Below are positions 54,206-55,157 of a stretch of DNA of 64,000 nucleotides, piece by piece; positions within the stretch are counted from its first letter, which is position 1; the number at the start of each line of letters is the position of its first letter. Below the pieces are notes generated by a model. The model had not been told where the DNA came from and made no database searches. It saw nothing but the letters and a program-made list of their open reading frames with translations. The DNA is from Escherichia coli (GTDB lineage: Bacteria; Pseudomonadota; Gammaproteobacteria; Enterobacterales; Enterobacteriaceae): the NCBI RefSeq assembly GCF_024502345.1, contig NZ_JALDNN010000001.1; one strand, given 5' to 3'. Both the position numbers and the translations under genes were made by a program.

Positions 54206-54299
54206 CGATATGCGCCGAGTTTTTTTAAGCTAGTGAGTACACGGCTGCAGAATTCCGCTACAATCTGCGCCACTATTCTTCCCATGCTCAGGAGATATC

Positions 54300-54890
54300 A
54301 TGAAAGTAGCAAAAGACCTGGTGGTCAGCCTGGCCTATCAGGTACGTACAGAAGACGGTGTGTTGGTTGATGAGTCTCCGGTGAGTGCGCCGCTGGACTA
54401 CCTGCATGGTCACGGTTCCCTGATCTCTGGCCTGGAAACGGCGCTGGAAGGTCATGAAGTTGGCGACAAATTTGATGTCGCTGTTGGCGCGAACGACGCT
54501 TACGGTCAGTACGACGAAAACCTGGTGCAACGTGTGCCTAAAGACGTATTTATGGGCGTTGATGAACTGCAGGTAGGTATGCGTTTCCTGGCTGAAACCG
54601 ACCAGGGTCCGGTACCGGTTGAAATCACTGCGGTTGAAGACGATCACGTCGTGGTTGATGGTAACCACATGCTGGCCGGTCAGAACCTGAAATTCAACGT
54701 TGAAGTTGTGGCGATTCGCGAAGCGACCGAAGAAGAACTGGCTCATGGCCACGTTCACGGCGCGCACGATCATCACCACGATCACGACCACGACGGTTGC
54801 TGCGGCGGTCATGGCCACGATCACGGTCATGAACACGGTGGCGAAGGCTGCTGTGGCGGTAAAGGCAACGGCGGTTGCGGTTGCCACTAA
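54300..54890 (+). CDS. slyD: FKBP-type peptidyl-prolyl isomerase / metallochaperone SlyD
   Basis: 196-aa ORF MKVAKDLVVSLAYQVRTEDGVLVDESPVSAPLDYLHGHGSLISGLE... with His/Cys/Gly-rich C-terminal tail. Confidence 0.96.
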   Translation: MKVAKDLVVSLAYQVRTEDGVLVDESPVSAPLDYLHGHGSLISGLETALEGHEVGDKFDVAVGANDAYGQYDENLVQRVPKDVFMGVDELQVGMRFLAETDQGPVPVEITAVEDDHVVVDGNHMLAGQNLKFNVEVVAIREATEEELAHGHVHGAHDHHHDHDHDGCCGGHGHDHGHEHGGEGCCGGKGNGGCGCH

Positions 54891-54904
54891 TACCGAAAAA
54901 GTGA

Positions 54905-54936
54905 CAAAAAAGCGGGGAATCCCCGCTTTTTTTACG
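54905..54936. terminator. Bidirectional rho-independent terminator between slyD and slyX
   Basis: AAAAAAGCGGGGA-at-CCCCGCTTTTTTT, U-runs on both strands. Confidence 0.8.
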
Positions 54937-54938
54937 CC

Positions 54939-55157
54939 TCAATAATGTGGCGGTGGCGTTTCTTCAGCCTGCGACGCGATGTTCGACGGCTGGCTGGCTT
55001 TTAACTTCTCGGTCAGCAGACGCAGATGATCGCGCAGTTTCGCCATCTCCATTTCATGAGCGGTCACCGTGACGTTCAGTTCTTCAATGGTGATTTCCTG
55101 AAAAGCCAGTCGGCTCTCCAGCTCTGCCAGGCGTGCTTCCAATGATAAATCCTGCAT
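54939..55157 (-). CDS. slyX: Protein SlyX
   Basis: 72-aa coiled-coil [31 protein letters not shown]... Confidence 0.9.

Follow-up and report, generated by a model that had tools for sequence, protein, structure and literature searches.

The DNA analysed here, a stretch of 64 kb that we refer to as the window, carries the gene order kefB-yheV-slyD-slyX-fkpA, as read from its ORFs and their family matches, with slyX convergent to slyD. The features that define the slyD gene are the following.

54290..54294, + strand: AGGAG resembling a Shine-Dalgarno sequence, 5 nt before the ATG of slyD, as read from the DNA
54300..54890, + strand: coding sequence of slyD, with an ATG start and a stop codon after 196 codons (ORF list, identity with PDB 2KFW, NF008008)
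54300..54743, + strand: folded core, residues 1-148, an FKBP prolyl-isomerase domain with an inserted IF chaperone domain (Pfam, solved structures)
54744..54887, + strand: C-terminal metal-binding tail, residues 149-196 (translation, composition, literature), with the stop codon at 54888-54890
54906..54932, no strand assigned: hairpin of 12 pairs with an A-run on one side and a T-run on the other (terminator scan and RNA fold)

Identity and genomic context of slyD

The encoded protein is identical to E. coli K-12 SlyD (2KFW, 2K8I; NF008008/PRK10737), tail included, and the gene neighbourhood is alike. All 196 of its 196 residues are shared with the E. coli SlyD of PDB 2KFW; its residues 1-166 match 2K8I and its residues 1-154 match the chain of SlyD in 8G01/8G02, with an identical folded core in 2K8I, 2KFW and 8G01. 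At the DNA level, slyD is 99.3% identical to the K-12 gene, with synonymous differences only. The NCBIfam SlyD equivalog model NF008008 scored 427 bits, the cut-off being 174, and aligned residues 1-196 with profile positions 1-196. The Pfam FKBP_C model aligned residues 4-78 only, with profile positions 6-74 of 94, a restricted match that is consistent with an FKBP domain split by the insertion of the IF ('insert-in-flap') domain, which was defined in the NMR structures 2K8I and 2KFW (PMC7055735).

The 24 kb around slyD are colinear with the annotated chromosome of E. coli 88-3493 from tsgA to bfr, in the standard gene order. The gene, annotated as slyD, occurs in a single copy in 5,425 of the 5,426 complete E. 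coli genomes searched. A slyD match was absent from the one remaining genome, and in one complete genome the match lay on a plasmid-labelled record. The best identity found in this collection was 99.8% for the slyD DNA and only 99.1% for its 24-kb surroundings (window positions 40001-64000), whose nearest complete genomes include O157:H7- and O55:H7-type strains. Judging from these comparisons, the window is an E. coli/Shigella-type chromosome identical to none of the complete genomes in the collection, probably from a Shigella or from an E. coli lineage that is thinly sampled.

The hairpin at 54906-54932 (-19.7 kcal/mol, z = -4.8) is the single strong one in the 48-nt gap between slyD and slyX, and it probably terminates both convergent genes, acting as a bidirectional intrinsic terminator. 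Rfam, tRNA and strong tandem-repeat scans across the whole window gave no matches.

Extent and composition of the tail

Translation of 54744-54890 gives HGHVHGAHDHHHDHDHDGCCGGHGHDHGHEHGGEGCCGGKGNGGCGCH followed by the stop codon; these 48 residues, encoded by the last 48 codons of the gene, comprise 15 His, 6 Cys, 16 Gly, 5 Asp and 2 Glu. Two motifs mark the ends of the tail.

54744..54758, + strand: HGHVH motif (His149, His151, His153), the conserved proximal metal site (91/91 intact homologous tails; PMC7055735)
54870..54887, + strand: GCGCH end of the tail (GGCGCH); GCGC, optionally one residue, and H end 85/91 intact tails

The tail contains all six cysteines of SlyD, the folded part having none. 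His and Cys together account for 21 of its 48 residues, compared with a mean of 2.6 (sd 2.0) for stop-free 48-aa stretches, and the runner-up among all stop-free 48-aa stretches in the six frames of the window reached a count of 11; the composition of the tail is far beyond chance. Its codons are mainly CAC (11), GGC (9), GGT (7), TGC (5), CAT (4), GAT (3) and GAC (2), and its GC content is 64% versus 53% elsewhere in slyD.

A sequence-only reading of this DNA had described the segment as the C-terminal Ni/Zn-binding tail of SlyD, a description supported by the identity with 2KFW, by the NF008008 match and by the published account of the tail. The peptide that it quoted matches the translation of 54744-54890 exactly; the start that it gave, 54760, misses the first 16 nt of the tail and falls in another frame (it reads ARTIITT...). 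Of the codon bias that it proposed, the richness in CAC and GGC is evident, while that in GAT is weak, this codon being used only three times.

Repeats in the tail DNA

The short direct repeats of the tail, and the segments that they delimit in rare alleles, are located as follows.

54774..54788, + strand: 15-nt unit CACCACGATCACGAC, tandemly duplicated in a rare 201-aa allele (alignment with locus L003)
54776..54786, + strand: copy 1 of the 11-nt repeat CCACGATCACG, bounding the alleles that have a 39-nt deletion or duplication
54776..54814, + strand: 39-nt (13-codon) module with the first GCCGG motif, its exact register being ambiguous within the repeat
54815..54825, + strand: copy 2 of the 11-nt repeat CCACGATCACG, 39 nt downstream of copy 1

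The 11-nt unit is the longest exact direct repeat in the tail. Tandem Repeats Finder (TRF) reported two units for this segment, one of 12 nt in 2.4 copies (score 44, 88% match) and one of 6 nt in 3.3 copies (score 33), and no score of 50 or more anywhere in the window; the tandem codon repeats that the sequence-only reading had suggested looking for thus come down to these two partial units, with no real array. Ranked among 144-nt tiles of the window, the tail came in the top 0.5% for the longest repeat and in the top 0.2% for repeated 8-mers. As a null for repetitiveness we used 5,000 synonymous recodings of the tail peptide, which yielded two null distributions. A longest repeat equal to or above the observed 11 nt was present in 38-53% of the recodings, and the 10 repeated 8-mers observed in the tail fell well inside both null distributions. 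Since the repeat content of the tail matches that of its synonymous recodings, the repetitiveness of this DNA follows passively from what the peptide is made of. Selection for or against tail repeats was also considered and is unsupported, both the longest repeat and the 8-mer count lying within the recoding nulls. The tail DNA can therefore be called repetitive relative to the other tiles of the window, but not in the sense of a true tandem array, nor above the level of its synonymous recodings.

Tail length and motifs across enterobacteria

A protein database was searched with SlyD, and the segment following the column of residue 148 was measured in the best 120 cluster representatives, 91 of which had tails that appeared intact. 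The median length of these 91 enterobacterial tails was 47 aa and the extremes were 25 and 69 aa, with differences between genera, bearing out the earlier claim that tail length is variable among enterobacteria. Every one of them starts with HGHVH, and all but six end with GCGC(x)H; it is the middle of the tail that varies, being longer or shorter and having different numbers of CC motifs, which were absent from 7 tails, single in 63, double in 19, E. coli SlyD also having two, and triple in 2. Relative to the 48 residues of E. coli, the tail measures 34-36 aa in Erwinia, 44-49 in Klebsiella, 48 in Salmonella, 50 in Citrobacter, 42-54 in Serratia, 55-59 in Dickeya and 61-62 in Pragia and Brenneria. 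The SlyD proteins of other Enterobacterales, Yersinia included, have an FKBP+IF core 79-97% identical to that of E. coli, and they share with it the HGHVH start, the GCGC(x)H end and the His/Asp/Gly/Cys composition of the tail. Duplicated modules are visible in several of the long tails; that of Dickeya undicola, for instance, contains EGCCGGHGHDHDHDH twice.

At the short end, P0057 (173 aa, 164 member sequences) is a Klebsiella-type SlyD with a 25-residue tail, HGHVHGAHGHDHDHDHGHDGCCGCH. This tail apparently results from an in-frame deletion joining GCCG to the terminal GCH, and represents a further repeat-bounded length allele, in a different genus.

Several database sequences around SlyD tails were unusual for other reasons. 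The entries P0010, P0012, P0014, P0046, P0072 and P0106 are frameshifted in the tail and continue in a Thr/Ile/Val/Ala-rich extension whose end lies past the normal stop; P0012, of 214 aa, comes from a 4.99-Mb E. coli record. Such +1-frame entries are slyD sequences whose frame shifts in the tail, either through genuine mutations that remove it or through errors of sequencing. In P0007, found on a 1,037-nt contig of a Logan assembly, 11 His residues of the tail are replaced by Tyr (YGYVYGAHDYYYDYDYDG...), which implies repeated C-to-T changes at first codon positions; this pattern is suggestive of deamination or bisulfite-type data, or of an editing experiment, and not of variation arising in nature.

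The database also contains apparent fusions of the SlyD N-terminus, through a His-rich linker, to a CobW_C-like domain (P0039 and P0061); P0039 is an artefact of a chimeric assembly and does not represent a true fusion protein. It lies at positions 2217-3035 of L007, a metagenome contig of 2.4x coverage joined inside a run of His codons. Before the junction this contig carries the enterobacterial genes kefB-yheV-slyD with a GC content of about 0.52-0.58, and after it cobW/DUF1980-pth-mfd with about 0.42, in a pth-mfd gene order typical of Firmicutes; at the junction itself the GC content drops from about 0.52 to 0.42. Runs of His codons of the slyD type can mis-join metagenome contigs.

Length alleles within E. 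coli

Within E. coli the length of the tail is almost fixed. Sixty genomes were drawn at even intervals from the 5,425 ranked ones, and 59 of them had the standard length; the identity bands of this ranking that are able to hide an indel hold at most ~33 genomes. Three length alleles were seen in the species, each of them in frame and bounded by direct repeats. In the -39 nt allele, represented by E. coli HCP4S3_I4 (183 aa), one GCCGG module is lost between the 11-nt repeats, as judged by alignment; the +39 nt allele of E. coli ERP001 (209 aa) aligns as the reciprocal duplication, with three GCCGG modules; and the +15 nt allele (201 aa; P0004, strain MB10) has gained HDHDH. In an exact-protein index the 196-aa protein was represented by 97,568 blocks, and the 183-, 201- and 209-aa proteins by 343, 139 and 3 blocks, respectively; blocks are not genomes, and these counts indicate orders of magnitude only. 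When a junction-spanning sequence was compared by BLAST with the complete genomes of E. coli, canonical genomes aligned as two joined pieces and ranked equal with true deletions, and for this reason the block counts were taken as a rough substitute for a count of the -39 allele.

Five loci with the -39 allele were compared; they differ at many SNPs, some of them within ~60 nt of the junction, so that at least 5 SNP haplotypes carry the allele. These differences, which extend even to the vicinity of the junction, indicate that the deletion arose more than once, that is, that it is recurrent. The +15 allele was on one haplotype common to three loci. In a weak sense, then, slippage-type events occur and recur at this site, yet they are rare or removed by selection. 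The earlier statement that the tail DNA is prone to slippage is thus upheld weakly, by the rare in-frame +/-39 and +15 alleles, and is at odds with the overwhelming dominance of the standard length; comparison with other strains, which the sequence-only reading had proposed, reveals a length that varies between genera and is nearly fixed in E. coli.

Discussion

The SlyD tail encoded in the window was correctly recognized, and it is an ordinary, already known feature of a textbook-identical E. coli protein. We are in practically no doubt that, as a whole, the segment is best explained as the metal-binding tail of E. coli SlyD, the nickel-related steps being drawn from published work on the identical protein. 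As the SlyD found here has the published sequence, its functional steps were taken from the literature, and what the present analysis shows is its identity, its context and its variation.

The tail of SlyD is unstructured (2KFW), has been described as 'variable among SlyDs' and is rich in His, Cys, Asp and Glu; it takes up to 7 Ni(II) with a Kd below 1.8 uM, at sites of mixed geometry, and the binding of Ni reversibly inhibits the PPIase activity of the protein (PMC7055735). [quoted passage not shown] The truncated SlyD155 retains a single site, in which His149/151/153 are the Ni ligands, and this tail-less protein does not restore [NiFe]-hydrogenase activity in vivo (PMC7055735). The published evidence that tail length affects hydrogenase maturation and nickel storage, as the sequence-only reading had stated, consists of tail removal only, namely the SlyD155 truncation, and not of natural length alleles; the PPIase activity is dispensable for hydrogenase maturation (PMC7055735). 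The tail also stimulates the release of nickel from HypB, and SlyD is thought to be both a nickel store and a nickel source (PMC7055735). The folded domains of SlyD bind the disordered N-terminal extension of HypB, and the C-terminal tail mediates a Ni-specific transfer to the CxxCGC motif of HypB, and probably to its G-domain too, accelerating the HypB GTPase (PMC12284835). The literature debates whether the tail chiefly donates nickel, stores it or regulates HypB (PMC12284835). The tail also has a practical side, being known to protein chemists as the reason why SlyD contaminates Ni-affinity purifications (PMC13397214).

From these data the following picture can be proposed. The FKBP and IF domains (residues 1-148) would dock onto the N-terminal extension of the accessory GTPase HypB, while the flexible His/Cys/Asp-rich tail would hold several Ni(II), up to about 7, in mixed geometries. 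The tail would then hand nickel to HypB, stimulating both nickel release and GTPase activity, and the nickel of HypB would be inserted into the large subunits of [NiFe]-hydrogenases. In addition, the tail may act as a cellular nickel reservoir, with Ni binding reversibly inhibiting the isomerase. At the DNA level, the short direct repeats (11-15 nt) would occasionally lead to the in-frame loss or gain of 13- or 5-residue modules, and over longer times such events may have produced the range of 25-69 aa seen in the tails of Enterobacterales.

Three other explanations were weighed against this one. That the real product is the antisense ORF at 54288..54887 (-), of 199 aa, which spans all of slyD, or the +1-frame ORF at 54700..54945 (+), the His-rich reading being incidental, has a practically negligible probability. 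Both ORFs are indeed open, and a Thr/Ile/Val/Ala-rich +1 reading ends database proteins such as P0012 and P0046; however, these frames stay open because codons for His, Asp, Gly and Cys (CAC, GAT, GGC, TGC and the like) create no stops when read out of frame, the +1-frame proteins fall in small clusters (1-11 members) that share the SlyD N-terminus, and the product of the slyD frame is identical to a purified and solved protein and matched end to end by curated family models. The antisense ORF is a shadow ORF, kept open because the sense codons yield no stops on the reverse strand. We regard as very improbable the idea that the tail is a contingency locus, in which a simple-sequence repeat slips so often that the tail differs in length among strains or is turned on and off in them. 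The short direct repeats, the in-frame -39, +39 and +15 alleles, the occurrence of the first of these on at least 5 SNP backgrounds and the frameshifted tails of some database entries are what such a locus might be expected to display, but TRF found no uninterrupted many-copy tandem tract inside slyD (12-nt x2.4 with an 88% match at best, and no score of 50 in the window), the DNA is as repetitive as random synonymous recodings, and frequent length differences among close strains were not found in the 60 sampled genomes (59 of standard length, with at most ~33 genomes in the bands that could hide an indel) or in the protein index (97,568 blocks against 343, 139 and 3).

The third explanation concerns function rather than coding: the main job of the tail in vivo would be the buffering of metals (Zn, Cu, Co) or a metal-dependent switching of the isomerase/chaperone, delivery to HypB being secondary. 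Ni reversibly inhibits the PPIase, and the SlyD of H. pylori binds Zn besides Ni (PMC7055735); Ni binding moves the IF and PPIase domains relative to each other (PMC12284835); and other clients of SlyD have been reported (Tat signal peptides, Fe-S biogenesis, Fur/YdiV). Nevertheless, the failure of SlyD155 to restore hydrogenase activity, the dispensability of the PPIase for maturation (PMC7055735) and the Ni-specific transfer to HypB mediated by the tail (PMC12284835) make this possibility quite improbable, and we retain nickel handling towards HypB as the preferred reading of the tail.

Comparison with other metal-binding proteins helps to delimit what is particular to this tail. The HGHxaaH sequence is the conserved metal site of Thermus thermophilus SlyD (PMC7055735); this protein (PDB 3CGM) and SlyD155 share with E. 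coli SlyD the FKBP+IF fold and a single HGHxH metal site, but the extended His/Cys-rich tail is absent from both, and each binds one metal ion. [quoted passage not shown] These segments are attached to folded domains unrelated to those of SlyD. Urease can also mature without the tail of UreE, but hydrogenase maturation requires that of SlyD (PMC7055735). We take the likeness between them and the SlyD tail to be a functional analogy.

It is rather unlikely, in our opinion, that the 39-nt segment between the 11-nt repeats is a recurrent mutational hot spot whose -39, +39 and +15 alleles form a niche-selected series of nickel capacities, and not neutral noise. If this were true, the number of GCCGG metal-binding modules would go from 2 to 1 in the 183-aa protein or to 3 in the 209-aa protein. 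Our search of the literature found no report on natural tail-length alleles or within-species polymorphism and their functional effect.

In summary, SlyD and its tail have been characterized structurally, biochemically and genetically for decades, and the present result matters little for discovery. It makes a small descriptive addition, namely that in E. coli the length of the tail is near-invariant and that its rare alleles are in-frame changes of modules at direct repeats of 11-15 nt. These length alleles constitute ready-made material on the relation between tail length and nickel capacity.
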